Assembly: GCA_963823655.1 (NCBI GenBank)
Contig: CAWGMK010000005.1
Coordinates: 25,439 to 89,438, forward strand
Direction: 5' to 3'
DNA from: an uncultured Bacillota bacterium
GTDB taxonomy: Bacteria > Bacillota > DTU025 > MWDF01
Length of the DNA stretch: 64,000 nt
The notes below the pieces were generated by a model. It did not search any database. It was not told where the DNA came from and was given only the letters and a program-made list of their open reading frames with translations. Position 1 is the first letter of the stretch. The number at the start of each line of letters is the position of its first letter. A program made the translations under genes and the position numbers. Positions 41,935 through 59,499 of this stretch are shown here, in pieces.

Positions 41935-41947
41935 TTGGTAGGACCAA
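41935..41947. promoter_or_regulatory. FadR-subfamily operator TTGGT-AGG-ACCAA
   Basis: Perfect match to the LldR/PdhR/GlcC-type box; related copies at 42140-42150 (TTGTCATACCA) and 42929-42941. Confidence 0.7.
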
Positions 41948-42195
41948 GCAAGAAATTCTTCGACGGCCGTGCCGACATTTCTAAGACACAATTTTCCGCC
42001 TACTTTGCCATAATGTCCTATAGCTGTGGTAATGCCTGCATTATTGCACATAATCCCATGCTCGCCACATCCTAAGGGAAGTATGTGAAAAAAATATAAA
42101 TGTTTCGGAATCGCGAAATCTTGGGTATTATTTAGTTGATTGTCATACCATCATACAAAGCGGGCCGTAATGCTAACAAGGATTATGGTGAACTG

Positions 42196-42891
42196 ATGAG
42201 GATACAGCCGATAGAGCGCAGCACATTGCCGGACGCCATTATCGAGCGGATCAAAGGTATGATCATCGACGGGAATCTAAAGCCCGGCGACAAGCTCCCT
42301 CCCGAAAGGGACCTGGCAACCAGCATGCAAGTAGGAAGGGCCACCGTTAGGGAGGCTCTAAAGGCGCTCACTTCCATCGGGCTTCTGCAAAGGAGCACCG
42401 AGGGCACATATATTAAAGAGAAGATCGAATACTTCCAGCAGCCCCTCACTTACAGCCTTATAATGGACCACATCACCCTCAAGGAGCTAATCGAGGCCAG
42501 AAGGATTCTTGAAGTCAAGATCTCCGAGCTGGCGGCTCTTAGGGCCACCGATGAGGAAATCGCCGGCATCGCAGAGGCCGTAATGATACAGCAGATGCAT
42601 CCCAGCGACACGGATTACCTATTCTACGAAGCGGACTTGAAGTTCCATCTGACCCTGGCGGCAGCCGCGAAGAACAGGGTCCTCAGCGAAACCATGGTTT
42701 GTACCAGGCATCTATTGATCAAGGCGCAGCAGGCGGTGGGCAAACTGCCCGGCATGACCGATAAGGCCCTGGTAAGCCACTCGGCCCTTCTTGAAGCAAT
42801 CAAGGGCAAGGACGCCGAGAAAGCGAAAAGCGTAATGGAAGACCACATAAATGACGTGGAAGAAGGCTTCAGGAAGCTAAACCTGCTGTAG
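42196..42891 (+). CDS. GntR family, FadR subfamily regulator
   Basis: LKPGDKLPPERDLA...VGRATVREAL HTH; FCD domain EARRILE, D.KFH, N..L. Confidence 0.92.
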   Translation: MRIQPIERSTLPDAIIERIKGMIIDGNLKPGDKLPPERDLATSMQVGRATVREALKALTSIGLLQRSTEGTYIKEKIEYFQQPLTYSLIMDHITLKELIEARRILEVKISELAALRATDEEIAGIAEAVMIQQMHPSDTDYLFYEADLKFHLTLAAAAKNRVLSETMVCTRHLLIKAQQAVGKLPGMTDKALVSHSALLEAIKGKDAEKAKSVMEDHINDVEEGFRKLNLL

Positions 42892-42928
42892 GTTAGCCAC
42901 CGGCCTTCTTGTTTATTTGGACCAAGCG

Positions 42929-42941
42929 TTGGTAGGACAAT
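42929..42941. promoter_or_regulatory. FadR-type operator upstream of the catabolic operon
   Basis: TTGGTAGGACAAT, near-identical to the 41935 site. Confidence 0.6.
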
Positions 42942-43094: not shown

Positions 43095-44063
43095 ATGAGC
43101 GGGGTTAAGAAAGTACTCGTTACAGACCACGTATTCCCCAACCTCGAACCGGAGAAGGCCATCATCGGAGCCGCCGGCGGTGAAGTCATATTCGCCGGAA
43201 AAGACGCCGACGCGGCCACGATCCTGGAGCTGGCGAAAGACGCCGACGCCATCCTCAACTGCTACAAGAAGATACCCGCGGAGCTTTACTCGACGGCAAC
43301 AAAGTGCAAGCTGATAGTAAGGTACGGCATCGGCACCGACACGATCGACATTCCCGAGGCCACGAAGTACAAGATCGCGGTAAGCAATATGCCCGACTAC
43401 TGCATAGACGAAGTCTCCGACCACGCCATGACCCACATCCTCAGCAGCATAAGGAAGATCACCACCGCCAACAAGCTCATAAAGGGCGGCACCTGGAGCC
43501 TCGGACCCCTCAAGCCGATAAGAAGGCTTAAGACCCTCACCCTCGGCCTGCACGGCTTCGGCCGCATCCCCAGGATGGTTGCCGAAAAGGCCAAGGCATT
43601 CGGCTTCAAGATCATCGCCTGCGACCCGTACATCAACAAGGAATTGGCCGACAAGATGGGAGTCCAGTCGGTGAGCTTCGATGAGCTTTGCGCGATGTCC
43701 GACGTCATATCCATCCATGCTCCCCTTACGAAGGAGACCAATGAGATATTCAACAGCGCGGCCTTCGCCAAGATGAAGGACGGCGTAGTCATAGTCAACA
43801 CCGCAAGAGGCGGCCTGATAAAGGAAGCCGACCTGGTAGAGGCCCTCAAGTCCGGCAAGGTGGGCGCCGCCGGCATCGACGTGACCAACCCCGAGCCTCC
43901 GGCGAAGGACAATCCGCTCTTCGCGTTCGACAATGTAACCCTTACACCGCACGAAGCCTGGTACAGCGAGGAAGCCCTAGTGGAGCTCCAGGACAAGGCA
44001 GCCGGCGAAATCGTCCGCTCGCTCAAGGGAGAGCCGCTGAAGTACCAGCTAAATAAGTTCTAG
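43095..44063 (+). CDS. D-isomer 2-hydroxyacid dehydrogenase (CtBP-like subfamily)
   Basis: RYGIGTD, PDYC.DEVSDH, GFGRI, NTARG, DV...EP, TPHEAWYSEE. Confidence 0.9.
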   Translation: MSGVKKVLVTDHVFPNLEPEKAIIGAAGGEVIFAGKDADAATILELAKDADAILNCYKKIPAELYSTATKCKLIVRYGIGTDTIDIPEATKYKIAVSNMPDYCIDEVSDHAMTHILSSIRKITTANKLIKGGTWSLGPLKPIRRLKTLTLGLHGFGRIPRMVAEKAKAFGFKIIACDPYINKELADKMGVQSVSFDELCAMSDVISIHAPLTKETNEIFNSAAFAKMKDGVVIVNTARGGLIKEADLVEALKSGKVGAAGIDVTNPEPPAKDNPLFAFDNVTLTPHEAWYSEEALVELQDKAAGEIVRSLKGEPLKYQLNKF

Positions 44064-44074
44064 GAAGGGCAAAG

Positions 44075-45283
44075 ATGTACAAAACCGCCTGGAAGATAGC
44101 GCCCAGGGAGTATCCCGGGGTGAAGAACATAGGAGAGGCCGTCAAGGAGGCGCTCAAAAAGCCCTTCGGCACGGCTTTGTCCGAACTGGTCAAGCCCGGC
44201 GACAAAGTTGCGATCGCCGTGGATGACCTGACCAGGCCCACGCCCCAGTCGGAGCTGCTTCCCGTCGTTGTGGACGAGCTGGCAAAACTCGGCATCAAAG
44301 AGAAGGACATCACTGTCATCATCGGCCTTGGCGCGCACAGGCGCATGAGCCCGGCCGAGATAGATGCCCGTTTCGGCTCTGTTGCAAAGAGGGTCGGCGC
44401 CGTTGTAAACCACGACACTGACGACTGCGTAGTCATAGGCAAGACCTCCACCGGCGGCGAGATAGCGGTGAACAGGCTCTTCTGGGAGTCCGATGCCAAA
44501 ATCGCAGTCGGCTGCATCCTCCCCCACATTTATGCGGGATGGAGCGGCGGGGCGAAGATGATACAGCCCGGCATATCCAGCGTAAAGACCACAACGCATG
44601 TGCACAGGATCGCCAATCTGCACCTGTACGACATACTCGGCAACACCGAGAACCTGGTAAGGACCGAGATGGAACAGATAGCCGCAGTTGCCGGTCTTAA
44701 ATTCATAGTGAATGTCGTGCTAAACGACAGGAACGAAGTAATATCGGTAGTCGCGGGGGACACGGTGCTTGCCCACAGGGCAGGCGTCAAAGAGGCCGAG
44801 AAGATATATGGCTGGAACGGCCTTAAACCCGTGGACGTGGCAATAGCCTATGCACCCGGAGTCGCAACCGACCTCTGGCAGAGCGCAAAAAGCCTCACAG
44901 TAGGCGCTATGGCAATAAAGCAGGGCGGAACTGTGATACTAGTCGCTGCCTGCCCGGAGGGGATCGCGCCGGGACATCCGATAATCAAGAGCCTTGGCAC
45001 CGTCTCTTTCGATGAGGCCCTGCACAGGGTGGACAATGGGCTACTAGATGACACGGTGGGCGCGCTCGTCTACATGACGGTCGCCAAATGCCGTGAAAAG
45101 GGCAGGATAATACTGGTTTCTTCCGGCATTTCCAAGGAAGACGCGACCTGCCTGGGATTGGAGTCAGCAGCCGATGTGGACGAGGCGATGAGGATGGCCC
45201 TTGGCCATGCAAACGCCGAAGCCGAGGTCGGCATTATAGAGTGTGCTGGTGAACTGTCTATTTCAATTAAGGAGGAACTGTAA
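44075..45283 (+). CDS. Nickel-pincer-dependent LarA family hydroxyacid racemase/epimerase
   Basis: DDLTRP, GLGAH, NHD, PHIYAGWSGGAKMIQPG, H200-like TTHVH, DLWQSAK, CPEG. Confidence 0.88.
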   Translation: MYKTAWKIAPREYPGVKNIGEAVKEALKKPFGTALSELVKPGDKVAIAVDDLTRPTPQSELLPVVVDELAKLGIKEKDITVIIGLGAHRRMSPAEIDARFGSVAKRVGAVVNHDTDDCVVIGKTSTGGEIAVNRLFWESDAKIAVGCILPHIYAGWSGGAKMIQPGISSVKTTTHVHRIANLHLYDILGNTENLVRTEMEQIAAVAGLKFIVNVVLNDRNEVISVVAGDTVLAHRAGVKEAEKIYGWNGLKPVDVAIAYAPGVATDLWQSAKSLTVGAMAIKQGGTVILVAACPEGIAPGHPIIKSLGTVSFDEALHRVDNGLLDDTVGALVYMTVAKCREKGRIILVSSGISKEDATCLGLESAADVDEAMRMALGHANAEAEVGIIECAGELSISIKEEL

Positions 45284-46534
45284 ATGAGCGAGTGGAAAAA
45301 AGAGGAACTTAACGGCAAGCCTTGGTTCGACAACGAGAAATTCTGGGGATCCCCGCACAACTACTCCCCGAGCATCACGAAGCTGCTTCCGAAGAGCATC
45401 TATATCCATGATGTAACTCTTCGCGACGGCGAACAGACCCCAGGCGTAGCATTCAAGGCCGACGAGAGGATCATCATCGCCGAAGCCCTTAGCGAATTGG
45501 GAGTGGCGAGGATCGAAGCCGGCATGCCCATAGTCTCCAAGGACATCGCCAACGGAATCAAGAAGCTCGTCAACATGAACCTCAAGTCCCAGGTCGTTGC
45601 CTTCGCAAGGGCCCACAAGGACGACATCAACGCCTCCCTCGACTGCGGCGTAAAGGCGATCGTTGTTGAGCATACAGTTAACCCCTACCTTTGCAGATGG
45701 GGCTATGACCTCACCGAGGACAAGGTAATCGAGAGGCTCATTTCGAGCGTACAGATGGCCAAGGAGAACGGCCTGCACACCACGTTCATGGGCTGGGACT
45801 TCTTCAGAGCCCCGCTCGAATTCTCCAAGAAGATCTACACCGAAGTCGTAAAGCATGCCCATCCCGACGCGCTCACCCTCGTCGACACCCTCGGCGTCGC
45901 GACCCCTGCGGCAGTACAGGAGACCTTCGTCGAGTTCAGGAAGATGTTCCCCGACATGACCCTCGAGTTCCACGTGCATAACGACTACGGCATGGCAGTA
46001 GGCGCAGTGCTCGCAGCAGTAATGGGCGGAGCCAACGGCATCCACACCGCCATGAACGGCATAGGCGAGAGGACCGGCAACGTCGCGACCGAGGAAGTCT
46101 GCATGGCGCTTGAAATGCTCTGGGGCATCAAGACCGGCATTGACACCACGAAGATAATGTACGTCAGCAAGATAGTAGAGGAGATCTCCAAGTTCAAGCT
46201 CGCCAAGAACAAGCCCATCGTCGGCGAGCACCTCTTCGACATCGAGAGCGGCGTCGTCACCCACATCGTCAACGAGATGAACAAGCAGGGCTTCAAGCCC
46301 GTTATGACCCCGTTCACCCCCGAGATGGTAAACCAGAAGCCCGTACGTTTCGTCCTGGGCAAGGGATCCGGAAAGGTCACAATCCTGCAGCATCTGGACA
46401 AGCTCGGCATCAAGTGCACAGATGAGCAGGCTGACGAGATAACCGAAGAGATCAAGGCTTACGGAAGAACCATGAAGGCAGTACTCAGCGATGACGACCT
46501 CGTAAGGATATCCAAGCGCGTATTGGCCAAGTAA
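45284..46534 (+). CDS. DRE-TIM metallolyase, LeuA/homocitrate/citramalate synthase-like, without regulatory domain
   Basis: DVTLRDGEQTPG, FHVHNDYGMA, GIGERTGN, KPIVG...F..ESG, LGKGSG; 416 aa. Confidence 0.85.
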   Translation: MSEWKKEELNGKPWFDNEKFWGSPHNYSPSITKLLPKSIYIHDVTLRDGEQTPGVAFKADERIIIAEALSELGVARIEAGMPIVSKDIANGIKKLVNMNLKSQVVAFARAHKDDINASLDCGVKAIVVEHTVNPYLCRWGYDLTEDKVIERLISSVQMAKENGLHTTFMGWDFFRAPLEFSKKIYTEVVKHAHPDALTLVDTLGVATPAAVQETFVEFRKMFPDMTLEFHVHNDYGMAVGAVLAAVMGGANGIHTAMNGIGERTGNVATEEVCMALEMLWGIKTGIDTTKIMYVSKIVEEISKFKLAKNKPIVGEHLFDIESGVVTHIVNEMNKQGFKPVMTPFTPEMVNQKPVRFVLGKGSGKVTILQHLDKLGIKCTDEQADEITEEIKAYGRTMKAVLSDDDLVRISKRVLAK

Positions 46535-46600: not shown

Positions 46601-47740
46601 ATGAAGCTAACCAGAGTTCTAGTTGCATTCTCGATCCTGGCGCTAGTGATGGTAGCGACAGTAGGAGCAGCAGCTCCGAAGACCTACAAAATCGCCCATC
46701 TATCGCCGCTGACCGGCTCCGCATCATCGTATGGTTATTACATGGTAAACGCCGCCAAGATGGCCGTTGAAGAAATCAACGCCAAGGGCGGAGTCAACGG
46801 CGTCCTGCTCGAGTACATGGAAATCGACGAGACTTCCAACTCGGCCCAGGCCATTGACGCAGCATACAAGGCAGTCGCATGGGATCCGCTAGTAATCCTC
46901 GGCCCCAACCGCTCCGGTGGCGTACTTGCCGCCGAGTTCGTATGGAAAGAAGCCAAGATCCCCACAATAACCGACGGAACAAGCGCAGAGACCACCAGGA
47001 AGGGCAACCCTTACACATTCAGAATGCAGATCTCCTCCGAGTTCTGGATTCCGCTACTCGTCCGCACAGCCGTTGAAGTATACAAGTCGAAGAAGATCGC
47101 CGTTATGTACGGCCTCAACGACTACTCCAAGGCCAACTGGGTAGCCACCGAGCCCGCGATGAAGAAGTACGGCATCACCCCCGTAACAGTACAGACGTTC
47201 AACGACGGCGACCAGGACTTCACAGCCCAGCTGCTGAAGGTCAAGGCCTCCGGCGCCGACGCCCTCTTCGTATACTCCTACACACCGGAAGTCGGCATGA
47301 TCCTCAAGCAGAGGGCCGAGCTCGGTATGCCCAACCTTCTCGTGTTCTCTGAGCGCGCGGCAAGCGTCCCCTCAGTCGAGGACCTTTCCGGCACCAAGAA
47401 CTACGAGGGCCTCGTCTGCACAACCACCCTGTCCCCTGGCGACCCGAGGCCGGGCGTGCAGAAGTTCATAAAGGACTACGAAGCCAAGTACAAGCACATC
47501 GTATCCTCGACCCACATCAACCACTATGACTCCGTATACATCGTGGCCGACATCCTCAAGAGGGTCGGTCCCGACCGCGAGAAGATCAGACAGGAACTCG
47601 CCAAGCTTGATTACGTAGGAGTACTCGGTCACTATGTGGCCGACAAGGAAGGCAACTTCGTACACACCATGTACACCCAGGTCCGCGAGAACGGCAAGTG
47701 GAAGCTTCTGCTGACCGAGGAGTATCCGGTAATAAGGTAG
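46601..47740 (+). CDS. HAAT (Liv-type) ABC transporter substrate-binding protein
   Basis: Signal peptide, PLTG, AVEEINAKGGVNG, DQDFTAQLLK. Confidence 0.9.
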   Translation: MKLTRVLVAFSILALVMVATVGAAAPKTYKIAHLSPLTGSASSYGYYMVNAAKMAVEEINAKGGVNGVLLEYMEIDETSNSAQAIDAAYKAVAWDPLVILGPNRSGGVLAAEFVWKEAKIPTITDGTSAETTRKGNPYTFRMQISSEFWIPLLVRTAVEVYKSKKIAVMYGLNDYSKANWVATEPAMKKYGITPVTVQTFNDGDQDFTAQLLKVKASGADALFVYSYTPEVGMILKQRAELGMPNLLVFSERAASVPSVEDLSGTKNYEGLVCTTTLSPGDPRPGVQKFIKDYEAKYKHIVSSTHINHYDSVYIVADILKRVGPDREKIRQELAKLDYVGVLGHYVADKEGNFVHTMYTQVRENGKWKLLLTEEYPVIR

Positions 47741-47754
47741 TCTAGACACAGTCG

Positions 47755-47778
47755 CCCGGCGCGGGTAACCGCGCCGGG
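47755..47778 (+). terminator. Perfect stem-loop after the SBP gene (mRNA stabiliser)
   Basis: CCCGGCGCGG-GTAA-CCGCGCCGGG with a GNRA loop. Confidence 0.55.
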
Positions 47779-47810
47779 TAACCTTGCTTATCGTAAGGAG
47801 GCTATAGCCC

Positions 47811-48698
47811 TTGAACCTCACAACTTTGATTCAATTGGTTATCAACGGACTGGCCATGGGCCTTCTCTATGCGCTTCCCGCGCTGGGCATCTCCCTTATC
47901 TGGAACGCTTCCGGGCTTTTCAACTTCGCGCAGGGGGATTTGCTCACTTTCGGGGCATACATCATGCTATCGCTCTTCAGCAAAGTGGGCCTGCCTTACG
48001 TAGTATCGTTTTTGCTCACATTCCTGATTATGGGCTCGATAGGCTACATACTCAGCTCGATTTACTTCTACCCGATGTTCAGGGCCAGGATCAACCCCCA
48101 GATCATCCTCATCGGTACGGTCGCTCTGTCCGTATTCATAAGGAACGCGATCCTTCTCATCTGGGGCCCCCAGGCTCAGTCCTACCAGAACCCGTTCGGC
48201 TCGTCCGCCATCCAGTTCGGCGAAATATATGTTATGCCGCACATATTCGGCATATTCATAATAGTCGCCCTGTTGCTTGGCGCTTTGCAGTTGTTCCTTA
48301 GAGGCACGATCACCGGCATCGGCATGAGGGCCGTTGCTCAAAGGCCCGTAGCCTCGTCCCTTATGGGGATCAAGAACAACAGGATGGTAGCCCTCACATT
48401 CTTCATGTCGACCGGCATAGCTGCCGTGTCAGGCATACTGATCGCACCCATACTTCCCCTGACCCCCGAGACCGGCGGCATGATAGCGATCAAAGCTTTC
48501 GCCGCGGTCCTGATAGGAGGCCTCGGAAGCTTCTCGGGCGCGCTCGTGGGAGGCATAGCCGTGGGCATTACAGAGATGGTTTTCGCCACCTTGCTGGCTC
48601 CGACCTACAAGGACGTCTTCATATTCATAGTCCTTGCGATATTCCTGGTATTAAGGCCCGGCGGCATATTCAGGGCCCAGATATCAGAGAAAGTGTAG
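47811..48698 (+). CDS. HAAT ABC permease (LivH-like)
   Basis: NGLAMG..YAL.ALG, NFAQG, GIGMRAVAQ, KAFAAVLIGGLGS. Confidence 0.9.
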   Translation: MNLTTLIQLVINGLAMGLLYALPALGISLIWNASGLFNFAQGDLLTFGAYIMLSLFSKVGLPYVVSFLLTFLIMGSIGYILSSIYFYPMFRARINPQIILIGTVALSVFIRNAILLIWGPQAQSYQNPFGSSAIQFGEIYVMPHIFGIFIIVALLLGALQLFLRGTITGIGMRAVAQRPVASSLMGIKNNRMVALTFFMSTGIAAVSGILIAPILPLTPETGGMIAIKAFAAVLIGGLGSFSGALVGGIAVGITEMVFATLLAPTYKDVFIFIVLAIFLVLRPGGIFRAQISEKV

Positions 48699-48708
48699 GA
48701 GGGGTCAC

Positions 48709-49662
48709 ATGCGTGCAGTGTTAAAGTTTTTGAAGGACAAAGCATTCTACGCCCTGGCGCTGTTACTTGTGATCGCGCCCTATGTGCTGCAGCGCTATCA
48801 GTTCTACATCCTGCAGCGCGGCGTACAGAACTCCATCCATGTGCTGGGGCTTGTCATACTGGTCGGCTTCACGGGCCTTCTGTCATTGGGCCACGCGGGC
48901 TTCGTGGCGCTGGGCGCCTACGCCTACGGCATAGCGATGGTCAAGTTGGGCCTTCCCGTATGGGTCGCCCTAATAATCGCACCGCTCTTCTCGATGCTAA
49001 TAAGCATGCTGCTGGCCTATCCTTCCTTCAAGCTCTCAGGCCCGTTCCTCGTGGTTATCACGATAGCCTTCGGCGAGATAGTGAGGATATTGATACTGAA
49101 CCTGCAGGGCATCACGGGAGGCCCGTACGGGCTCACTGGGTACAAAGTGCTATTTACAAACGGCAAGGTGCTCTACTATGTGATGCTGGCCACGCTCTTC
49201 CTGCTTGCCATATTCGTAAGAAGGCTGGGCAACTCCAGGATCGGCCTTGCCTTCAAGGCGATCAAGGAGGACGAGATCGCGGCTGACGTCATGGGCGTAA
49301 ACGTAAGGAAGCACAAGCTCATGGCATTCATGCTCAGCTCGGCGCTTGCAGGCCTCTCAGGCGTGTTCATGGCGAGCCTGACAAGGTACATCAACCCCGA
49401 CTCTTTCACATTCGCCGAAAGCTCGACCTACCTGCTGATGGTGGTCATGGGCGGAATGCAGAATGTGTTCGGCGCGATAACCTCTACCATCGTCATCACG
49501 GCGCTTCCCGAGGTGTTGAGGTTCCTTGCGCGCAGCAGGCTGCTCATATACTCCCTTACGCTGCTGGTATATCTCAGGATGTACGGCAACAAGGGCGGGC
49601 TTCTGCAGATGTTAGGCATAAAGCCCAAGAAGGCAAATCCAAATACAGGGTCGAGGAGCTGA
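48709..49662 (+). CDS. HAAT ABC permease (LivM-like)
   Basis: GFTGLLSLGHAGF, ITIAFGEI, SRIGLAFKAIKEDE, VVMGG. Confidence 0.9.
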   Translation: MRAVLKFLKDKAFYALALLLVIAPYVLQRYQFYILQRGVQNSIHVLGLVILVGFTGLLSLGHAGFVALGAYAYGIAMVKLGLPVWVALIIAPLFSMLISMLLAYPSFKLSGPFLVVITIAFGEIVRILILNLQGITGGPYGLTGYKVLFTNGKVLYYVMLATLFLLAIFVRRLGNSRIGLAFKAIKEDEIAADVMGVNVRKHKLMAFMLSSALAGLSGVFMASLTRYINPDSFTFAESSTYLLMVVMGGMQNVFGAITSTIVITALPEVLRFLARSRLLIYSLTLLVYLRMYGNKGGLLQMLGIKPKKANPNTGSRS

Positions 49663-49666
49663 GACT

Positions 49667-50449: not shown

Positions 50450-51158
50450 AGTCGTAGTAGCCTACGGCGTAGCCCCGGTAATTCACGAAGTCTCGCTAAC
50501 TGTCCCCGACGGCAAGATCGTAACGCTCCTCGGTGCCAACGGCGCCGGCAAGTCCACGATATTGAAGACCATATCGGGCCTTCTGAAGCCCATAAGCGGA
50601 GAGGTCACATTCGACGGGACGGTAATATCCAAGCTGCCGCCTGAGGAGATAGTGAAGAAGGGCATCGCCCACGTCCCGGAGGGAAGGCTGGTATTCCCAG
50701 GGTTAACCGTTCTGGAGAACCTCAAGATGGGCTCCTATGTGATAAGGCAGAAGAGGAAGAACCTCAAGGAGAACCTCGACAAGGTATATGAGCTGTTCCC
50801 AAGGCTTCTTGAGAGGAAGAACCAGACAGCGGGCACGCTGTCCGGCGGAGAGCAGCAGATGCTTGCGATAGGCAGGGGCCTTATGAGCGAGCCGAAGCTT
50901 CTTATGCTCGACGAGCCTTCATTAGGACTTGCTCCTGTTATCATCGACAGCATCATCGACAAGATAATCGAGATCAACAAGCAGGGGATGACCATCCTCC
51001 TGATAGAGCAGAACGCGCATCTGGCCCTTGAAGTCTGCGACTATGGCTACCTGCTATCCGTCGGCAACATAATGATGCACGGCGAGAAGCAGAAGCTGGT
51101 GAGCGAAGAGGGCATGATCAATGCCTATCTGGGCGGAGGCAAGCAGGAGGCCGTCTGA
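50433..51158 (+). CDS. HAAT ABC ATP-binding protein (LivF-like)
   Basis: GANGAGKS, VPEGR, LSGGEQQMLAIGR, LDEPSLGLAP; GGAGG RBS before ATG 50433. Confidence 0.92.
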   Translation: MLKVDKVVVAYGVAPVIHEVSLTVPDGKIVTLLGANGAGKSTILKTISGLLKPISGEVTFDGTVISKLPPEEIVKKGIAHVPEGRLVFPGLTVLENLKMGSYVIRQKRKNLKENLDKVYELFPRLLERKNQTAGTLSGGEQQMLAIGRGLMSEPKLLMLDEPSLGLAPVIIDSIIDKIIEINKQGMTILLIEQNAHLALEVCDYGYLLSVGNIMMHGEKQKLVSEEGMINAYLGGGKQEAV

Positions 51159-52386: not shown

Positions 52387-52676
52387 ATGGACAAGCGCAT
52401 ATTGAAGATCAAAGAGGAAGACAACGTCGCGACCGCGATGCAGAAGATAACGCCCGGCGAAGATGATGGATGGGCTAATCAGCCCTTCAGGAGATACCTT
52501 TCGGGCACAAGATCTCGGTGGTGCCCATCAAAAAGGGCGGAATGATACTCAAATATGGCGAAGTAATTGGCGCCGCCAGCCGCGATATTAAGGCCGGCGA
52601 GCATGTGCACATACACAACATGGAGGGGACCAGGGGAAGAGGGGACATCCACTCAGATCCTGCCCACAAGGAGTAG
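52387..52676 (+). CDS. UxaA-family small (SAF domain) subunit; frameshift at ~52470; not in the ORF track
   Basis: MDKRILKIKEEDNVATA, then after the shift IPFGHKIS...ILKYGEVIG...IKAGEHVHIHN..GTRGRGD. Confidence 0.8.
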
Positions 52677-52679: not shown

Positions 52680-53852
52680 ATGAGCGGTATCAAGAATGAA
52701 TTTATGGGCTATCTTAGGGAGAACGGCACGGTCGGCGTAAGGAACTATGTATTGATACTGCCCACCGTAGTCTGCGCTAACGCCACCGCAAGGTCCATCG
52801 CCTCCATGGTGCCAGGCACCACCGTTGTGACCCACCAGCACGGCTGCGCCCAGCTGGGTGCGGATTTCGTGCAGACCCAGAGGACTTTGATAGGCCTTGG
52901 CAGGAACCCGAACGTCAGGGCGGTCCTAGTCGTCGGGCTCGGCTGCGAGAACATGGAGGGCGAGACCGTAGCGGCGGCGATCGCAGCCACCGGCAAAAGG
53001 GTTGAGCTCATCACGATACAGAAGCTGGGCGGCACATTGAAGGCCACAGAGCTGGGAGTGCGCATAGCATCAGAGATGATGAGGGCCCGCTCCACCGATG
53101 TAAGGGTGCCGGCCAGCATAGAGAAGCTGACGCTTGCGCTTGAGTGCGGCGCTTCCGATGCGACCTCCGGCATAACCGCAAACCCTGCTACGGGCCTTGC
53201 GGTCGACATGCTTGTTGATATGGGAGGTTCGGCCATCCTCTCGGAGACTCCGGAGATGATAGGCGCTGAGCACATACTCGCAAAAAGGTGCTGCTCATCT
53301 GGCGTGAAAGACGACCTGTACGGCATCATCGGGGACGCCGAGAGGGGCATAAGCGGCATGGGCGTGGACATCAGAGGGTCTAACCCGACGCCGGGCAATA
53401 TGGCAGGAGGCCTGAGCAGCATTGAGGAGAAGTCGCTAGGCTGCATCTACAAGGCTGGGATCAGCCCTATAAAGCAGGTAGTAAAGTATGCCGAGACTCC
53501 TACAGAGAAGGGCCTCGTTATAATGGACACGCCGGGCCACGATGTTGAATCCATGACAGGGATGGCCGCAGGCGGCGCTCAGGTATGCGTGTTCACGACG
53601 GGCCTGGGAGCTGTTACCGGCTTTCCTATAATGCCCGTGATAAAAGTGTGCGGAAACCCCAGGACCAGCGCGTTCATGAGCGACAATATCGACATAGACG
53701 CAGGCCAGGTCCTGGACGGAAGGGCGAGCCTGCAGCAGGTGGCAGAGCAGATACTAGGTGAGGTCATGGAAGTCTCCACCGGCAAGGCCACGAAGGCGGA
53801 GAGCCTCGGCTACTCCGACATCGCGATAAACAGGATCGGGCCCACCACATAA
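52680..53852 (+). CDS. UxaA/GarD family dehydratase, large subunit
   Basis: GYLRENGTVGVRN, HQHGC, VGLGCE, ECGASD..SG..ANP, NPTPGN..GGLSSIEEKSLG, FTTG.G. Confidence 0.9.
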   Translation: MSGIKNEFMGYLRENGTVGVRNYVLILPTVVCANATARSIASMVPGTTVVTHQHGCAQLGADFVQTQRTLIGLGRNPNVRAVLVVGLGCENMEGETVAAAIAATGKRVELITIQKLGGTLKATELGVRIASEMMRARSTDVRVPASIEKLTLALECGASDATSGITANPATGLAVDMLVDMGGSAILSETPEMIGAEHILAKRCCSSGVKDDLYGIIGDAERGISGMGVDIRGSNPTPGNMAGGLSSIEEKSLGCIYKAGISPIKQVVKYAETPTEKGLVIMDTPGHDVESMTGMAAGGAQVCVFTTGLGAVTGFPIMPVIKVCGNPRTSAFMSDNIDIDAGQVLDGRASLQQVAEQILGEVMEVSTGKATKAESLGYSDIAINRIGPTT

Positions 53853-53896: not shown

Positions 53897-54838
53897 ATGC
53901 ATAAGTTCAATACCTGGGCTTTGGAGAACGGATACAGGACTGCATGGTTCCGGGGGGCGGATATCGATAGGGCCGTTCGCAGAGTGCGAGACCTTGAGCC
54001 AGCCATAGATCCCGGTATCTACGGGAGGTATTTCGAAAGCTTCAAAACGGCCCGCGAGCTCGGCTTATCCCCGGGCGAGCTGGGCCTGATAATCTATCTG
54101 CCCAAGAAGGTCCGCACCGCCTCATTCAAGCTGAGAGGCAAAGCTTACGAGGCGGCAATACCGCCTCCGATCTACTGCGACGAGCCCTCCGATATCGACG
54201 GTTTCGACTCGGAGGTAAACGAAAAGCTCGGCGGCCTGGCGAGGCCGATCAGGTTCCCTATGAAATCCATGAGCGTATTGCTCGGCATCTCCCGCTACGG
54301 CAGGAACAACATCACATACATCGAAGGCCTGGGCAGCCTTTTCATCATGCGCGCATACGCGGTAGAAGGCGTTGCCGAAGCCAATGTCGAACTGAGCGCC
54401 CCCATGGCGGTATTCGATGAGAAGGATGTGCTGTGTCCCGAATGCGACGGCTGCTTCGCATGCCTTGCTTCTTGCCCGACCGCCGCAATTTCGGACGACC
54501 GCTTCCTGCTTCACGCCGAGAGGTGCCTGACCTACTTCAACAAGAACGGCGGGCCGTTCCCTGCCTGGGTCGATAAAGGCTCCCATAACTGCCTTTTGGG
54601 GTGCCTGCACTGCCAGTCGTGCTGCCCCATGGACGAGGGAAAGCTTGTATTCGAAAGCTCTGGCATATGCTTTGAAGAAGACGAAACAAAGCATATACTA
54701 GGACTAACCATGGACGGGGAGCAGAGCGGCATCGAGGTCAGGATAGAGGATAAATACGCGAAGCTTGGAATAGGATATATGAGGGAGCATGTGGCAAGAA
54801 ACCTTGGCGCCCTCTTGGATAGCGGGAACCTCAAGTAA
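53897..54838 (+). CDS. QueG/reductive-dehalogenase-like 2x[4Fe-4S] protein
   Basis: PMK...GISRYGRNNI, CDGCFACLASCPTAA, RCLTY, GCLHCQSCCP. Confidence 0.7.
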   Translation: MHKFNTWALENGYRTAWFRGADIDRAVRRVRDLEPAIDPGIYGRYFESFKTARELGLSPGELGLIIYLPKKVRTASFKLRGKAYEAAIPPPIYCDEPSDIDGFDSEVNEKLGGLARPIRFPMKSMSVLLGISRYGRNNITYIEGLGSLFIMRAYAVEGVAEANVELSAPMAVFDEKDVLCPECDGCFACLASCPTAAISDDRFLLHAERCLTYFNKNGGPFPAWVDKGSHNCLLGCLHCQSCCPMDEGKLVFESSGICFEEDETKHILGLTMDGEQSGIEVRIEDKYAKLGIGYMREHVARNLGALLDSGNLK

Positions 54839-54865
54839 GCGGTACTAAAAATGCGGAGGAATTTG

Positions 54866-55769
54866 ATGTCGAATAACAAGAACAGACAGCTTCTGGGCTA
54901 TCTCTTCATAGCGTTCACAGGTGTAATGTTCGGGTCCTTGGAAGTTGCCTCGAAGCTCGTACCCCATATTCGGCCATTGCAGATGAACTTCGTTCGTTTC
55001 CTAATCGGAGCGATTGTGTTAGCCCCTTTTCCGTTTCTTGAGTTGAAAGCAAGAAAGATCAGGGTAAACATAAAAGATGTTATACAAACAGCACTGCTTG
55101 GAATTCTACTAGTAGGGTTCTCCATGACATTGATGCAAATCGGCATCTCCAAAGTGCCAGCGTCTCAAGTGGCGTTCATATTTGCCTCCAATCCAATGAT
55201 AATTGCAATTCTGGCAACTTTTATACTTAAAGAGAAGCCTGGTTTTCTAACATATGTGTTTATAATCCTTGGAATGACAGGCATGGTATTCATCGTAGAT
55301 CCATTTAGAGGCGCCTTTAATATTGATGTCCTATATCCAATTGCTGCCGTGATCCTGCAGGGGACATACATAGTCCTATCTAGGAAGACTCTCCATGAGG
55401 GTTGGAACCGTATTTGTTACTGGAGTTGGAATACTTTTCGGTTCTATAGCACTAGGGATCTTCAATTTGGTCTCTGGAGCGGGGCTTATCTCCGATATTA
55501 GGCCTGGTGATATTCCGATTATATTGTTTATAGGAGCTTGCATTTCTGGCTTCGCATACCTTTCGTACTTTAAAGGAATGGAGTTAACAAATACTAGCAC
55601 AGGGAGCGTAGTATTCTTTTTGAAGGCGATGACGGCTACTGTACTCTCCATACTAATCCTTAAAGATGCCCCGTCGATGTCCACATACATAGGGGCTGCA
55701 TTCATACTGGCCGGCACCGTGGTCCTGATAATTTCGAACAACCGGAAGAGCAGTCCGGTGAAAAAGTAG
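54866..55769 (+). CDS. DMT/EamA family transporter; frameshift at ~55388
   Basis: RFLIG, NP, ILKEK; second frame FAYLSYFKG, ILKD; more AT-rich codon usage. Confidence 0.8.
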
Positions 55770-55811: not shown

Positions 55812-55997
55812 ATGCCAATCATCGACATCAAGGTCCTAGAGGGAAAGACGCTCGATCAGAAGCGCAAGGTAGCCGCAGGAGTCACAAAGGTATGCTGTGA
55901 CGAGTTCGGCGTAACCCCGGACGCGGTGAGGGTCATCTTCACGATCATGAGGAAGGAAGACTTCGCAGTCTCCGGCAAGCTCAAGAGCGACAGCTAG
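55812..55997 (+). CDS. 4-oxalocrotonate tautomerase family protein
   Basis: N-terminal Pro (MPII), EGKTLDQKR, AVRV, FAVSG; 61 aa; GGAGGT RBS. Confidence 0.88.
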   Translation: MPIIDIKVLEGKTLDQKRKVAAGVTKVCCDEFGVTPDAVRVIFTIMRKEDFAVSGKLKSDS

Positions 55998-56032: not shown

Positions 56033-56061
56033 AAGGGTGTGGTTCATATCACACCCTTTTT
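56033..56061 (+). terminator. Intrinsic terminator
   Basis: AAGGGTGTGG-TTCATA-TCACACCCTTTTT. Confidence 0.7.
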
Positions 56062-56109
56062 GAGATTATTCGTGAGCCATTTTCATGAAATCCCGAAGGA
56101 GAAGGCCAT

Positions 56110-56901
56110 TTGAGGATAATCGTTTGCGTCAAACAGGTCCCGGGCAGCAGCAAGGTGGAAGTTGACGAGAAGACCGGGGTGCTTAAAAGGGCGGGCGTCG
56201 AGGCTAAGCTCAACCCTTATGACCTTTATGCGCTTGAGGCCGCGGCAAGGCTTAAGGATGCGTGCGGCGGCGGCAGCATCATAGCTCTAACCATGGGCCC
56301 CCCGCAGGCGAGGGAGGCCCTTGAAGAGGCCTATATGATGGGCGCCGACGAGATGGTGCTCCTGACAGATCGAAGGTTCGGCGGCTCCGACGTTCTTGCC
56401 ACATCGTATGCGCTAGCCCAGGCTATCGGCAAAGTCGGCGGCTACGATCTGATCATCTGCGGCAAACAGACCACAGACGGGGACACCGCCCAGGTCGGCC
56501 CCGAAATCGCCGAGCTGCTGGGCATACCCAACGTCTCGAATGTTTTGAATGTGCTCTCTTGCGCATGCGGCGTACTCAAGATCGAGCACGATTCCCCGGA
56601 CACGGTCTACACCGCGGAGGTTTCCATGCCGTGCCTTATATCGGTCGAGAAGACCAGAAGGTCGCCCAGGCTCCCCTCTTACAAGAGGAAAAAGATGCTC
56701 AAAGACGCGCCGTTTACTCAGCTTACGCTCGATGATCTCGATGACAGGGACGAGGCGAAGTACGGGCTGGACGGCTCTGCCACGCGCGTGGACAGGATTT
56801 TCCCGCCCGAAAGGCGCACGGACCGCGCGCTGTTCAAAAGCGGCGCCGATGATGCCGCCCGCCACATCTTTGACGAGCTCATCGAAGGAAAGCAGGTGTA
56901 G
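56110..56901 (+). CDS. etfB: Electron transfer flavoprotein beta subunit (LctB-like)
   Basis: VCVKQVP, NPYD, TMGPP, DRRFGGSD, GKQTTDGDTAQVGP. Confidence 0.92.
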   Translation: MRIIVCVKQVPGSSKVEVDEKTGVLKRAGVEAKLNPYDLYALEAAARLKDACGGGSIIALTMGPPQAREALEEAYMMGADEMVLLTDRRFGGSDVLATSYALAQAIGKVGGYDLIICGKQTTDGDTAQVGPEIAELLGIPNVSNVLNVLSCACGVLKIEHDSPDTVYTAEVSMPCLISVEKTRRSPRLPSYKRKKMLKDAPFTQLTLDDLDDRDEAKYGLDGSATRVDRIFPPERRTDRALFKSGADDAARHIFDELIEGKQV

Positions 56902-56903
56902 GC

Positions 56904-58094
56904 ATGGCAAAACTTGTCGTACACGATGAGCTGGTAATAGAGCCGTCAAAGCTCGCCTTACTGTGCCCCTTTGGCGCGATTGACGCATCGTCGGGTGGCG
57001 TTTCGATAAACGCTGCCTGCCGCATGTGCATGATATGCGTGAAGAAGTCGGCAGGCGCAATCACCCTGGAGGAGGATGGCGCCCAAGGATTAGAGGACAG
57101 GACCGGCATCGCCGTATTCACGGAGCTTGAGGGAGGGCTAATCCACCCGGTCTCCTTGGAGCTGGCGGGCAAGGCCAGGTCGCTTGCAAACAAGCTGGGA
57201 TGGCCGGTATATGCCGCGGTCATCGGGCATGGGGCCGCAAAAGCCGCCGCAGAGATGCTGCATTACGGCGTGGACCAAGCATATGCTTATGACAGTCCTG
57301 CTTTCGAGCACTTCAGGATCGAGCCCTACACAGCAGCCTTCTGCGACTTCCTGGAGAAGGTCAGACCCTCTGCCGTCCTGGTGGGAGCCACACATGTGGG
57401 ACGAAACCTTGCGCCCAGGACCGCAGCGAGGCTCAATACTGGCCTTACTGCCGATTGCACGGGGCTGGAGCTTGAGGCGGATGGGTCCCTGATACAGACC
57501 AGGCCTGCCTTCGGCGGCAACATCATGGCAAGGATAAAAACGCCCTCCCACAGGCCTCAGATGGCCACGGTGAGGTATAAGGTGATGCAGGCGCCGGAAA
57601 GGGCCATAGAGCCCTCAGGAAGCGTCAAAATCGTTGAAGTCACCGAGGAGATGCTCCATTCGGGAATCAAGATCACCGGGTCCAGGCCGAAGGAGAAGGT
57701 GATAGACCTTACCGAGGCTGACAGGATAATAGTGGCAGGCAGGGGAGTCAGGGGACCCAAGGACATGGCTATGATTCAAGCCCTCGCCGACGCGCTTGGC
57801 GCCCAGGTGGCGACCACAAGGCCGCTGATCGAGGCCGGCTGGCAGGATCCCAGGCGGCAGATAGGCCTGTCAGGCAGGACAGTAAAGCCGAAGCTGATAA
57901 TCACCTGCGGCGTGTCCGGATCGGTGCAGTTCGTGGCCGGTATGGCGAGTGCCGACAGGATCATCGCAATTAACACTGATGAGGACGCCCCGATATTCTC
58001 GGTCGCGCACCTTGAAATCGTCGGCGACATCTACGAGGTGGTGCCGAGGTTGACCGAGCTCATCAAAAGGAGGAGAGCGGATGCCGGTATTTGA
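56904..58094 (+). CDS. etfA: Electron transfer flavoprotein alpha subunit with N-terminal Fe-S domain (LctC-like)
   Basis: CPFGAI...CRMCMIC, GLTADC, TRPAFGGN, QIGLSGRTVKP, GVSGSVQF. Confidence 0.92.
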   Translation: MAKLVVHDELVIEPSKLALLCPFGAIDASSGGVSINAACRMCMICVKKSAGAITLEEDGAQGLEDRTGIAVFTELEGGLIHPVSLELAGKARSLANKLGWPVYAAVIGHGAAKAAAEMLHYGVDQAYAYDSPAFEHFRIEPYTAAFCDFLEKVRPSAVLVGATHVGRNLAPRTAARLNTGLTADCTGLELEADGSLIQTRPAFGGNIMARIKTPSHRPQMATVRYKVMQAPERAIEPSGSVKIVEVTEEMLHSGIKITGSRPKEKVIDLTEADRIIVAGRGVRGPKDMAMIQALADALGAQVATTRPLIEAGWQDPRRQIGLSGRTVKPKLIITCGVSGSVQFVAGMASADRIIAINTDEDAPIFSVAHLEIVGDIYEVVPRLTELIKRRRADAGI

Positions 58095-59499
58095 GAAGCT
58101 GTCGGGCACTGACAAAGACACCCTCATCGCCATATTCGGCAGTGATAGGGTCAAATTCGCGGGCCACTTCAGCGAGGAGTTCTGCCACGATGAGCTGGGC
58201 GGCATCTCATGTCCGCCGGAGGCTGTTGTCTTCCCCTTGAGCACAGGTGAGGTCTCAGCCGTCATGAAGCTAGCTTTTAAGAGGCGCATCGCCGTTACGC
58301 CCAGGGGCCAGGGGACGGGGCTTGTTGGCGGGTGCGTGCCTGTATATGGCGGCATTCTTATGGACATGTCGAGGATGAACAGGATACTTGAGTTGGACGA
58401 GGCCAACATGGCGCTAACGGTAGAGCCGGGAGTGCTCCTCATGGAGATAGTAGAATACACCACGAACCGCGGTTACATGTATCCGCCGGACCCCGGGGAG
58501 AAGTCGGCAACGATCGGGGGCAACATCTCCACGAACGCGGGGGGGATGAGGGCGGTCAAGTACGGCGTGACGCGCGACTATGTAAGAGGGCTGGAAGTGG
58601 TGCTCGCGGACGGCGAGGTGCTTGAGCTGGGCGGAAAGGTGGCCAAGAACAGCTCTGGCTACTCCCTGAAGGATATGATGGTGGGCTCCGAGGGCACGCT
58701 TGGCATAATTACCAAGGCCGTTTTAAAGCTCATACCCTTGCCCAAGAGGGTGGTAAGCCTTCTGGTACCCTTCGAGTCCCTTGAGCAGGCGATAGGGCTG
58801 GTCCCAGAGATTACTAGGTCGGGTGGGGCTCCACAGGCGGTGGAGTTCATGGAGCGCTCCGTAATCAAGGCGGCCGAAGATTTCCTGGGCAAGGAATTCC
58901 CGGACAGCTCGGCTCCCTGTTATCTGCTGATTTCATTTGATGGGTCCGGCAAGAAGGAAGTCGAAAACGCCTATGAGTCCGTAGCCGAGCTCTGCCTGGC
59001 AAAGGGCGCGACCGACGTCTTCATATCTGCCACCGAGGAGCGGCAGGAGATAATCTGGAAGGCGCGCGGCGCGTTTTTGGAGGCTATCAAGTCTTCGACC
59101 ACCCAGATGGACGAATGCGACGTCGTGGTGCCAAGAGACAGGGTGGCCGAGCTTATTTCATTCACACATTCGCTTGAAAGCAGGCATGGTGTGAGGATCA
59201 TGAGCTTCGGGCATGCGGGAGACGGCAATTTGCATGTGTATGTGCTGAAAGACGCGCTTGATGAGAAGTCTTGGATCGAGCGCCATGATGCGGTCATGAA
59301 GGCGCTTTACGGCAAGGCTAACGAGCTGAGAGGGCAAGTTTCCGGGGAGCATGGCATTGGGTACGACAAGCAGGCCGAGCTTTGCGGTTCGCTCGGATCA
59401 AGGGCGATTGAGATCATGAGTGGGATTAAACAGGCATTTGACCCTGAGGGAATATTGAACCCGGGCAAGGTCATTTGCGGGGGAAGGGCCGGCAAGTAG
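58081..59499 (+). CDS. FAD-linked 2-hydroxyacid dehydrogenase (LctD/GlcD-like)
   Basis: RGQGTGLVGG, PPDPG, TIGGN..TNAGG..AVKYG, GSEGTL, GHAGDGNLH, SGEHGIG, NPGK. Confidence 0.88.
   Translation: MPVFEKLSGTDKDTLIAIFGSDRVKFAGHFSEEFCHDELGGISCPPEAVVFPLSTGEVSAVMKLAFKRRIAVTPRGQGTGLVGGCVPVYGGILMDMSRMNRILELDEANMALTVEPGVLLMEIVEYTTNRGYMYPPDPGEKSATIGGNISTNAGGMRAVKYGVTRDYVRGLEVVLADGEVLELGGKVAKNSSGYSLKDMMVGSEGTLGIITKAVLKLIPLPKRVVSLLVPFESLEQAIGLVPEITRSGGAPQAVEFMERSVIKAAEDFLGKEFPDSSAPCYLLISFDGSGKKEVENAYESVAELCLAKGATDVFISATEERQEIIWKARGAFLEAIKSSTTQMDECDVVVPRDRVAELISFTHSLESRHGVRIMSFGHAGDGNLHVYVLKDALDEKSWIERHDAVMKALYGKANELRGQVSGEHGIGYDKQAELCGSLGSRAIEIMSGIKQAFDPEGILNPGKVICGGRAGK

Follow-up and report, generated by a model that had tools for sequence, protein, structure and literature searches.

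The window analyzed here, a 64,000-nucleotide stretch of contig CAWGMK010000005.1 (assembly GCA_963823655.1), comes from an uncultured anaerobic Clostridia bacterium whose genome (G000) is 97% complete, and at positions 41935 to 59499 it carries a real and conserved operon together with an adjoining gene unit. A preliminary description made from the sequence had read this region as an undescribed fermentative route for hydroxyacids. An open reading frame (ORF) listing combined with Pfam and NCBIfam scans of the window proteins confirmed every gene that had been named there, all on the plus strand between 42136 and 59499. A GntR regulator of the FadR (FCD) subfamily (42136-42891; PF00392 and PF07729) is followed by a D-isomer-specific 2-hydroxyacid dehydrogenase (43095-44063; PF02826 and PF00389), a LarA homolog with the fold of 2-hydroxyacid racemases/epimerases of the nickel-pincer nucleotide (NPN) type (44075-45283; Lar_N and LarA_C), and a LeuA-like DRE-TIM metallolyase (HMGL-like/HCS_D2; 45284-46534; PF00682 and PF22617), which belongs to a subfamily without a characterized member and which we propose to be a C-C lyase. 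The 0-nt gap reported between the latter two genes agrees with the ORF coordinates (45283/45284). Five genes of a Liv/HAAT-type ABC importer recognized by Pfam (46601-51158) encode a Peripla_BP_6 binding protein (46601-47740), two BPD_transp_2 permeases (47811-48698 and 48709-49662), and two ABC ATPases (49667-50449 and about 50451-51158). The gene for an acetate-kinase-family paralog (51158-52345; TIGR00016) does overlap its neighbor, as described, its start sharing 1 nt with the LivF stop.

Downstream of the kinase gene lie the two subunits of a dehydratase, a small SAF-domain protein (52387-52676, from the ORF list and comparison with a related genome) and a UxaA/GarD-family large subunit (52680-53852; PF04295 and PF20629, GD_AH_second and GD_AH_C). 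These are followed by a Fer4_16 (QueG-like) Fe-S protein found in the Pfam and NCBIfam scans (53897-54838), an EamA/DMT permease (54851-55769, Pfam scan and ORF list), and a 4-oxalocrotonate-tautomerase-family protein (4-OT; 55812-55997; PF01361) whose NCBIfam matches all fall under the cut-offs. Both the SAF and the permease genes occupy two frames in this assembly. The last three genes encode EtfB (56110-56901), EtfA with a Cys-rich N-terminal stretch (56904-58094), and a GlcD/LctD-like FAD dehydrogenase/oxidase (58081-59499). On the left, the unit is bordered by the intrinsic terminator of the upstream gene (41876-41903, plus strand), a stem of 11 pairs, 8 of them GC, ahead of a T run. The terminator previously placed ahead of EtfBA was also recovered: folding revealed that the tautomerase and EtfB genes are separated by a terminator-like hairpin and T run (about 56033-56062, plus strand), which a consensus scan had missed.

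Three FadR-type boxes had been proposed around the regulator gene. One is an exact palindrome, TTGGTAGGACCAA (41935-41947), 5' of the regulator gene, and another, TTGGTAGGACAAT (42929-42941), is a copy of it with two mismatches that precedes the catabolic genes; the third, TTGGACCAA (42917-42925), before the dehydrogenase gene, lacks a spacer. The number of boxes is not above chance, as 29 of 100 shuffles gave 2 matches at no more than 2 mismatches. Support for these operator-like boxes instead comes from their position in both intergenic regions flanking the regulator gene, their identical copies at the homologous locus of a genome of the same genus (G004), and a related box, GTGGTAAGACCAA, upstream of the corresponding operon in a genome from another family of the phylum (G068). 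The protein itself combines a GntR helix-turn-helix (HTH) with an FCD domain, and the putative palindromic operator near its own and its target promoters likewise fits the FadR subfamily. The regulator is 92% identical in G004 and 35 to 38% identical in G068 and in a closed genome (G039), where it adjoins the same enzymes.

The preliminary description had named a lack of shared conservation among the grounds for its own refutation; that the genes are kept together elsewhere was borne out by these three genomes and by metagenome loci. The core set consists of the GntR/FCD regulator, the D-2-hydroxyacid dehydrogenase, the LarA homolog, the LeuA-like DRE-TIM enzyme (hereafter also HMGL), the Liv ABC importer, the acetate-kinase paralog, and the split SAF-UxaA dehydratase. 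G004 is colinear from the regulator through 4-OT with 66 to 98% identity. In G068, the order differs from that in G000, with the binding protein (68% identity) and LivHMGF followed by the kinase (55%), SAF, UxaA (54%), the LarA homolog (44%), the 2-hydroxyacid dehydrogenase (47%), HMGL (40%), and GntR (35%), and then by unrelated genes. G039 carries part of the set, namely SAF, UxaA (57%), the LarA homolog (41%), GntR (38%), and HMGL (37%), behind a TRAP transporter and a glycyl-radical enzyme with its activase. Because the genes recur in shuffled order, we conclude that they belong together; a chance mosaic of unrelated genes was rejected on the shuffled-order conservation in G068.

Of 401 genomes of the phylum, seven, counting G000, have a LarA homolog that matches at E≤1e-75; HMGL and UxaA genes adjoin it in four of these, and in the other three (G023, G164, and G350) its neighbors are different. 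A metagenome scan by HMGL protein alignment yielded at least 520 relatives, from which 80 loci were kept, 48 of them with at least 8 kb of flank. Among the 13 such loci with HMGL identity of at least 43%, 9 had the LarA homolog and 8 had UxaA, with the two genes together in 8; the Liv ABC importer was present in 8 and EtfB-EtfA-LctD in 3. Of the 35 loci below 43% identity, one had the LarA homolog and none had UxaA. More distant HMGL relatives (36 to 41% identical) have varied neighbors, including FAH hydrolases, cupins, E1 dehydrogenases, hydantoinases, and M24 peptidases, which give no single hint of a substrate. Between G000 and G004, dN/dS was 0.03 to 0.09 for 12 of 13 genes (0.08 for the LarA homolog), which shows purifying selection, dS being saturated for the Fe-S protein gene. 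The dehydratase pair alone is not diagnostic of the operon, since only 2 of 31 loci with SAF-UxaA relatives in species genomes (L014-L044, that of G039 included) carry both the LarA homolog and HMGL.

Both the single sequence of the LeuA-like enzyme and a profile built from 22 sequences were aligned to homocitrate synthase (6ktq), isopropylmalate synthase (3rmj), and MAMS (6e1j). It shares with these enzymes the fold, the post-barrel subdomain, the metal ligands, and an Arg, a Thr, and a Gln: D48 (in an RDGEQ motif), H230, H232, R47, T202, and Q51 align with MAMS D90, H288, H290, R89, T257, and Q93, respectively. R47, D48, Q51, H230, and H232 are invariant in the 22 subfamily sequences, and T202 is invariant only in a four-sequence alignment. 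In contrast, the operon enzyme has Val and Trp or Ile in place of the general-base His and the positioning Glu. The equivalent of MAMS His388 is Val (HESGIH replaced by IESGVV; (I/V)ESG(I/V)V in the subfamily, with a profile consensus of ESGIVV), and that of Glu227 is Trp or Ile (GCED replaced by MGWD, and by PID in G068 and G039). In MAMS, the H388A, H388D, H388E, H388Q, E227A, and E227D mutants are inactive, the authors describe the His388/Glu227 arrangement as conserved in isopropylmalate synthases, and the Gln is placed next to the CoA thiol (available part of PMC11532901). The operon enzyme further differs in an extra conserved N-terminal W-x-S-P-x-N-Y stretch, part of the subfamily-specific motif [FW][WF][GV]SP[HW]NY, and in lacking a regulatory domain.

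These features bear on the possibility that the enzyme is a biosynthetic homocitrate, citramalate, or isopropylmalate synthase whose neighbors are unrelated. Its relatives carry the automatic names "homocitrate synthase" or "2-isopropylmalate synthase" in their source databases, save for two "hypothetical protein" entries, and its best solved relative is homocitrate synthase 6ktq. All curated NCBIfam cut-offs were missed, however (347 of 517, 315 of 485, and 283 of 463 bits). The enzyme has also lost the general-base His and the Glu, and its gene stays next to catabolic genes even where their order is shuffled. The reported absence of LeuCD and LeuB also held, as we found no match to the aconitase family (PF00330) or the Iso_dh family (PF00180) in G000, so that the host genome lacks the usual partners of LeuA-type synthases; the only other HMGL-like gene in G000 scored 77 bits. 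Given the loss of residues for acetyl-CoA condensation and the absence of aconitase- and LeuB-family genes, a biosynthetic reading appears hardly tenable, and the alignments indicate that the enzyme is not a LeuA-, CimA-, or NifV-type synthase, as the preliminary description had anticipated. LeuA, CimA, and NifV identities were thus rejected on the sub-cut-off scores, the lost His and Glu, and the missing PF00330 and PF00180 families. The subfamily profile matches LeuA and homocitrate synthase (1.7e-88) much better than DmpG-type aldolases (1.6e-24) or HMG-CoA lyase (2.3e-23). The subfamily is large: of 8000 candidates that were scored, 5298 matched at E≤1e-40.

The SAF-UxaA pair belongs to the UxaA/GarD superfamily (COG2721), as the large subunit contains the GD_AH_second and GD_AH_C domains and its C32, C56, C89, and C156 align with the Cys residues of GarD (6u7l). 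According to the available part of PMC6336799, these four Cys residues are conserved throughout the superfamily except in SuyAB, the sole known two-subunit member. The operon enzyme is split as SuyAB is but retains all four Cys residues, a comparison made with the published description of SuyAB. Because the four Cys residues are kept despite the two-subunit form, the pair looks like a SuyAB-style split version of an acid-sugar dehydratase.

The split form raises the possibility of a sulfonate route, in which SAF-UxaA would be a SuyAB-type sulfolactate sulfo-lyase and the LarA homolog a sulfolactate racemase. Consistent with such a route, the two-subunit form is known in the superfamily only for SuyAB (PMC6336799, in part), the G039 module adjoins a glycyl-radical enzyme with matches to sulfopropanediol dehydratase (630 bits against a cut-off of 1000), and the Ldh_2 protein of metagenome locus L099 best matches L-sulfolactate dehydrogenase (236 bits against a cut-off of 500). 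The four Cys residues described as absent from SuyAB are nonetheless all present here and aligned with those of GarD, the genome has no match to an NIR_SIR-family sulfite reductase, the DRE-TIM enzyme would be left without a role, and a literature search on LarA and sulfolactate gave nothing relevant among the papers returned. We consider a sulfonate route very improbable, and a sulfolactate lyase was rejected on the basis of the retained Cys residues and the lack of an NIR_SIR match in the genome. At the G039 locus (L014, C1:12424-18685), a glycyl-radical enzyme of the PFL2-3 subfamily, its activase, and the TRAP transporter adjoin SAF-UxaA-LarA-GntR-HMGL; this glycyl-radical enzyme attains no curated equivalog (HypD, 652 of 1100 bits; HpsG, 631 of 1000 bits).

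Relatives of the SAF-UxaA pair, compared at 45 to 56% identity, adjoin HpcH/HpaI, DHDPS, or KDPG aldolases or other acid-sugar enzymes. A conserved, uncharacterized cluster in Peptococcaceae and other Bacillota (L019, L027, L031, and L044) has the order MaoC-IclR-SAF-UxaA-HpcH/HpaI aldolase-2-oxoacid:ferredoxin oxidoreductase-HpaB/AbfD-like-ACAD-EtfBA, and Desulfosporosinus has TRAP-IlvD-IclR-SAF-UxaA-GlcD-GlcF-AOR-DHDPS; the relatives in Synergistaceae have housekeeping neighbors. Known pathways with a UxaA/GarD-type dehydratase include Route I, with an aldolase, and Route III, with a 4-dehydrogenase and an FAH-family 2,4-dioxo-acid hydrolase (Watanabe et al. 2019; PMC6336799, in part). Like these nonphosphorylative acid-sugar pathways, the operon clusters a regulator and an ABC transporter with a COG2721 dehydratase, which in those pathways gives a 2-keto-3-deoxy acid, and we propose that a redox step and C-C cleavage to pyruvate follow here as well. 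Unlike Routes I and III as described in that source, the operon has a two-subunit dehydratase, a LeuA-like DRE-TIM enzyme rather than an aldolase or FAH hydrolase as its C-C enzyme, a LarA-type epimerase, and an acyl-phosphate kinase; its host is a strict fermenter, and the cleavage that we propose would be CoA dependent and energy conserving.

The LarA homolog contains both domains of the superfamily (PF09861, 1.3e-51; PF21113, 6.2e-09), the match beginning at profile position 19. Equivalents of LarA1 R75, H108, H174, K184, and H200 align and are invariant in 10 aligned homologs; in LarA1, R75, K184, and H200 bind NPN and H108 and H174 are catalytic (PMC11770544, in part). The protein is nearest to malate racemases but under the racemase cut-offs (305 of 500, 249 of 462, and 248 of 460 bits). 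Its residues at LarA1 positions 175 and 176 are Ile and Tyr, and those at 358/359, in a weakly aligned stretch, are approximately Leu and Val; the residue before this Val is Leu in G000, Ser in G068, and Ala in G039. The combination fits no pattern given in the available part of PMC11770544, where lactate racemases have F, F, W, and E/Q and malate racemases have H/Q and K at the specificity positions. The lactate-racemase specificity residues at these positions (PMC11770544, in part) are absent, which argues, in line with the preliminary description, that the enzyme is probably not lactate specific, and with Ile, Tyr, and Val in place of H/Q and K it also differs from the malate racemases of that source. 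In G000 and G004 (window 44075-44140; L011 4057), the LarA homolog starts about 20 to 45 residues later than its relatives and lacks the first conserved stretch (L-x-Y-G ... L-P), its start lying 11 nt after the upstream gene.

An association between LarA homologs and such dehydratases is already in print, as Table S1 of Desguin 2020 lists LarA homolog group 5, which contains Mar1 of Desulfitobacterium hafniense, with COG2721 (PMC7583248, in part). Malate was doubted there as the true group 5 substrate, and tartrate or 2-hydroxysuccinamate was suggested. The operon protein resembles group 5 (PMC7583248, in part) in its proximity to malate racemases and its linkage to an "altronate dehydratase" gene but scores too low for either malate-racemase model (305 of 500 and 249 of 462 bits). 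Furthermore, group 5 is accompanied by Tct transporters in that table, whereas the operon protein is accompanied by Liv ABC, LeuA-like, and kinase genes.

The presence of genes for NPN synthesis varies among hosts of the operon. G068 has larE-larB-larC. A Lar_N match at E≤1e-30 occurred in 26 of 41 relatives, and 15 of these 26 had no LarC match, including all six Lar_N-positive genomes of the genus and G039. In the closed G039 genome, Lar_N matched 10 times, but nothing scored over cut-off for LarB, LarC, or LarE. The reverse case, larBCE without larA, is mentioned in the available part of a 2024 mBio paper. A second LarA homolog lies elsewhere in G000 (C7:9892-10866), and tandem LarA-family genes were seen in G023 (L013 7945-10573), beside an FGGY kinase, an SDR, a D-2-hydroxyacid dehydrogenase, and RpiR, and at metagenome locus L051 (7393-9972).

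The kinase had been called an atypical acetate-kinase homolog. It is indeed a divergent paralog, but it is also a true family member by curated cut-off, scoring over that of the acetate/propionate-kinase family (TIGR00016, 369.5 against 293.4 bits). A canonical AckA with the motifs GHRVVHAG and FDTAFH is encoded elsewhere in the genome (C13:236412), and the cluster kinases of G000, G004, and G068 share GFKVVHAK and FETGFH instead. The two changes, HR to FK and FDT to FET, presumably fall at the positions of Arg91 and Asp148 of the Methanosarcina acetate kinase. The statement that Pta is missing holds for the cluster but not for the genome, which encodes a PduL-type phosphotransacylase elsewhere. 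The proposed link to substrate-level phosphorylation was strengthened by the loci of the DRE-TIM enzyme's relatives, where butyrate kinase and phosphotransbutyrylase genes stand directly beside the enzyme gene. A butyrate-kinase-type gene directly adjoins HMGL in all seven annotated loci of this kind (L051, L055, L058, L059, L061, L064, and L099; TIGR02707 at 342 against 289 bits in L061), and six of the seven also have a PTA_PTB gene, with a PduL-type gene in its place in L051. These loci also hold an AP_endonuc_2 TIM-barrel gene, GntR/FCD, SAF-UxaA, and often an M20 deacylase, and each carries one of Ldh_2, a D-2-hydroxyacid dehydrogenase, or EtfBA-LctD. Three 2-hydroxyacid dehydrogenase families thus replace one another from locus to locus, which suggests that the carbon being oxidized or reduced adjoins a carboxylate and may hint at a hydroxy-dicarboxylate (aldarate-like) substrate.

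The adjacency of kinase, PTA_PTB, and HMGL-like genes could also reflect chemistry resembling that of ATP-citrate lyase, in which the kinase and phosphotransacylase would first activate the imported acid, or a 2-substituted malate formed from it, to its CoA ester and the DRE-TIM enzyme would act like an HMG-CoA lyase to give acetyl-CoA and an oxo acid. HMG-CoA lyases do belong to the family, and the altered substrate-site motifs of the kinase paralog would be compatible with such a role. This scheme leaves the dehydratase and the 2-hydroxyacid dehydrogenase without a role, acetyl-CoA as a leaving group again needs a base near the thioester, and the profile is much closer to LeuA and homocitrate synthase than to HMG-CoA lyase (2.3e-23). 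We regard it as improbable.

We infer a six-step pathway from family membership and gene linkage (steps 1 to 6). The acid would be taken up by the Liv-type ABC importer (step 1), and inversion at C2 by the LarA homolog would provide a single stereoisomer pool for stereospecific enzymes (step 2). The split SAF-UxaA dehydratase would then remove water to give a 2-oxo-3-deoxy acid (step 3), and a 2-hydroxyacid dehydrogenase would carry out redox chemistry on the carbon next to the carboxylate (step 4), here the D-2-hydroxyacid dehydrogenase and possibly LctD-Etf, and in relatives an Ldh_2 or LctD-Etf enzyme. The DRE-TIM enzyme would bind a 2-oxo acid on its metal and cut a C-C bond to yield pyruvate and an acyl-CoA, with CoA as the acceptor and the 2-oxo-acid side leaving as pyruvate enolate (step 5). 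Finally, a phosphotransacylase, the PduL encoded elsewhere in this genome and the Ptb within the cluster in relatives, would act with the acetate/butyrate-type kinase to convert the acyl-CoA to free acid and ATP (step 6).

We think it likely that the operon is dedicated to hydroxy-acid catabolism and that its products have roles broadly of this kind. To the complete reading, that of a GntR/FCD-repressed operon fermenting an imported 2,3-dihydroxy-type carboxylic acid of the sugar-acid or hydroxy-dicarboxylate class by steps 1 to 6, we assign a probability of about 40%. That the C-C step is CoA dependent (thiolytic) as written we consider less likely than not. We favor C-C cleavage because the 2-oxo-acid/metal site and the Gln near the CoA thiol are kept, the acetyl-CoA base is lost, and kinase and phosphotransacylase genes flank the enzyme gene; the favored form is a CoA-dependent cleavage that would be an energy-conserving counterpart to the step at which Route III hydrolyzes a 2,4-dioxo acid.

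It is nearly as likely that the DRE-TIM enzyme is simply an aldolase or decarboxylase. The early steps would be the same, but the enzyme would work independently of CoA, splitting a 4-hydroxy-2-oxo acid into pyruvate and an aldehyde or glyoxylate, or oxaloacetate into pyruvate and CO2. The D-2-hydroxyacid dehydrogenase would reduce the carbonyl fragment as an electron sink, and the role of the kinase would be limited to using acetyl phosphate that housekeeping enzymes form from pyruvate. The retained 2-oxo-acid and metal site, the lost acetyl-CoA base, and a cluster without phosphotransacylase suit this alternative, as does the dehydrogenase, which matches a glyoxylate reductase model at 194 bits; its best NCBIfam match is PGDH, at 255 bits against a cut-off of 454, and it reaches no equivalog. 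HpcH/HpaI or DHDPS aldolases follow SAF-UxaA in Peptococcaceae and Desulfosporosinus, a slot that the DRE-TIM enzyme could fill. A CoA-independent route does not explain the butyrate kinase and PTA_PTB genes directly beside the relatives' gene or the invariant Gln whose MAMS counterpart lies near the CoA thiol (PMC11532901, in part), and the match to DmpG-type aldolases (1.6e-24) is far weaker than that to LeuA and homocitrate synthase (1.7e-88). We hold this route as a whole to be unlikely, if a serious competitor.

Several observations weigh against the CoA-dependent pathway of steps 1 to 6. The best solved relatives of the binding protein are Leu/Ile/Val binders, and Liv/HAAT binding proteins usually bind amino acids. 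To our knowledge, no DRE-TIM enzyme catalyzes the thiolytic reaction, which is our own proposal. The cluster itself contains no phosphotransacylase gene, and its kinase is an acetate-kinase paralog rather than the butyrate-kinase type of most relatives' loci; the two cluster types may not be strictly equivalent, and the LarA homologs of butyrate-kinase loci are 25 to 39% identical to that of the window. As LarB (NF033503), LarC (PF01969 and TIGR00299), and LarE (TIGR00268) were over cut-off in none of G000, G004, G001, and G039, the cofactor for C2 inversion has no known source in these genomes. In the NCBIfam scan, no operon enzyme reached a curated equivalog cut-off save the kinase with its family-level model, and the assembly has frame shifts in the genes for SAF and DMT. 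The undescribed fermentative hydroxyacid route of the preliminary description thus stands as to gene conservation, a probably nonbiosynthetic DRE-TIM enzyme, a LarA homolog that is probably not lactate specific, and the link to phosphorylation, with its substrate class and chemical steps as proposals. Literature searches on LarA and on UxaA and SAF dehydratases returned no account of the whole operon.

The EtfBA-LctD genes form a separate unit behind the terminator and may serve the same pathway. Their earlier assignment to it is tentative: they accompany the module in 3 of the 13 well-flanked metagenome loci, and no Etf or LctD gene was found within 12.5 kb downstream of the G004 cluster or at the G068 locus. 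EtfBA-LctD adjoins the module in L061, L064, and L075. In the lct operon of Acetobacterium woodii, the LctBCD lactate dehydrogenase-Etf complex is encoded with a GntR regulator and a lactate racemase. The window resembles that operon: near a LarA homolog and a GntR regulator it encodes EtfB, an EtfA whose N-terminus carries a Cys motif of the Fe-S type, and a GlcD-like dehydrogenase. It differs in that the LarA homolog is not of the lactate-racemase type and in that a terminator precedes Etf-LctD, which does not accompany the cluster in G004 or G068. Table S1 of Desguin 2020 associates LarA group 1 with COG0277, COG2086, and COG2025 (PMC7583248, in part).

The Fe-S protein, the DMT permease, and 4-OT had also been listed for this region. 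All three are present in the G004 cluster, but they were found only in this genus. The Fe-S protein is 66% identical in G004 and absent from G068, G039, and the metagenome loci, and its relatives in a protein atlas fall only into unnamed Fer4_16 clusters.

The operon could show how fermenters obtain ATP from the breakdown of acid sugars or hydroxy-dicarboxylates, and it gives one of the many LarA homologs that lack a known substrate a native context in which it can be tested. The LeuA-like subfamily, with its 5298 matches and at least 520 metagenome loci, is annotated as a biosynthetic synthase, and assigning its reaction would correct thousands of annotations. The missing LarB, LarC, and LarE, even in a closed genome with 10 Lar_N matches, raise the question of how the nickel-pincer cofactor is supplied. 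It is conceivable, though we think it quite unlikely, that the subfamily adds a reaction type to those of the DRE-TIM enzymes: by a retro-Claisen reaction that depends on CoA, it would split a 2,4-dioxo acid, or one related to it, into pyruvate and acyl-CoA, and it would operate alongside LarA-type enzymes that work without cofactor genes. If so, anaerobes would gain, through phosphotransacylase and kinase, an ATP-yielding version of the Route III acid-sugar pathway, and LarA-type enzymes under purifying selection without NPN genes would imply cofactor scavenging or an unknown maturation route.

The two frame breaks within the operon are probably assembly indels, since both genes are in a single frame in G004 and the window and genome hold further split genes. 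The SAF gene lies over two frames at 52387-52545 and 52518-52676, and the DMT gene over two at 54851-55501 and 55395-55769. In the SAF region, the contigs of all three wastewater sequencing runs that cover it (one contig each) are missing a single nucleotide at each of positions 52465 and 52481; no run contig covered 55083-55687, which spans the DMT break. The share of the window in sequencing runs was small, at most 0.14 of the sampled words, in wastewater and unlabeled metagenome runs. Elsewhere in the window, a phosphoglucomutase (PGM) gene is in two ORFs (11237-12100/12021-12641), as is a GntP permease gene (32667-33470/32087-32623), and truncated genes at 33658-34092 and 36141-36683 encode a 144-amino-acid class II FBA fragment and an RpiR protein reduced to its HTH. 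A PTA_PTB gene elsewhere in the genome (C13:284116-284987) is spread over three frames. Such split genes point to an assembly rich in indels or to a decaying genome.

The remainder of the window is rich in sugar and sugar-acid genes. A sugar island at 39-12641 contains a ribose-type ABC transporter, a metallo-beta-lactamase-fold protein, UPF0261, a RuBisCO-like protein (RLP; 5751-6737), two class II aldolases, RpiB, TIM, an FGGY kinase, and PGM; it presumably resembles RLP-containing clusters for acid-sugar or deoxy-sugar salvage. Two further acid-sugar modules consist of a DHDPS-family aldolase (13649-14569) beside a TRAP system and a second D-2-hydroxyacid dehydrogenase (34532-35626) beside FBA, GntP, FGGY, and RpiR genes.

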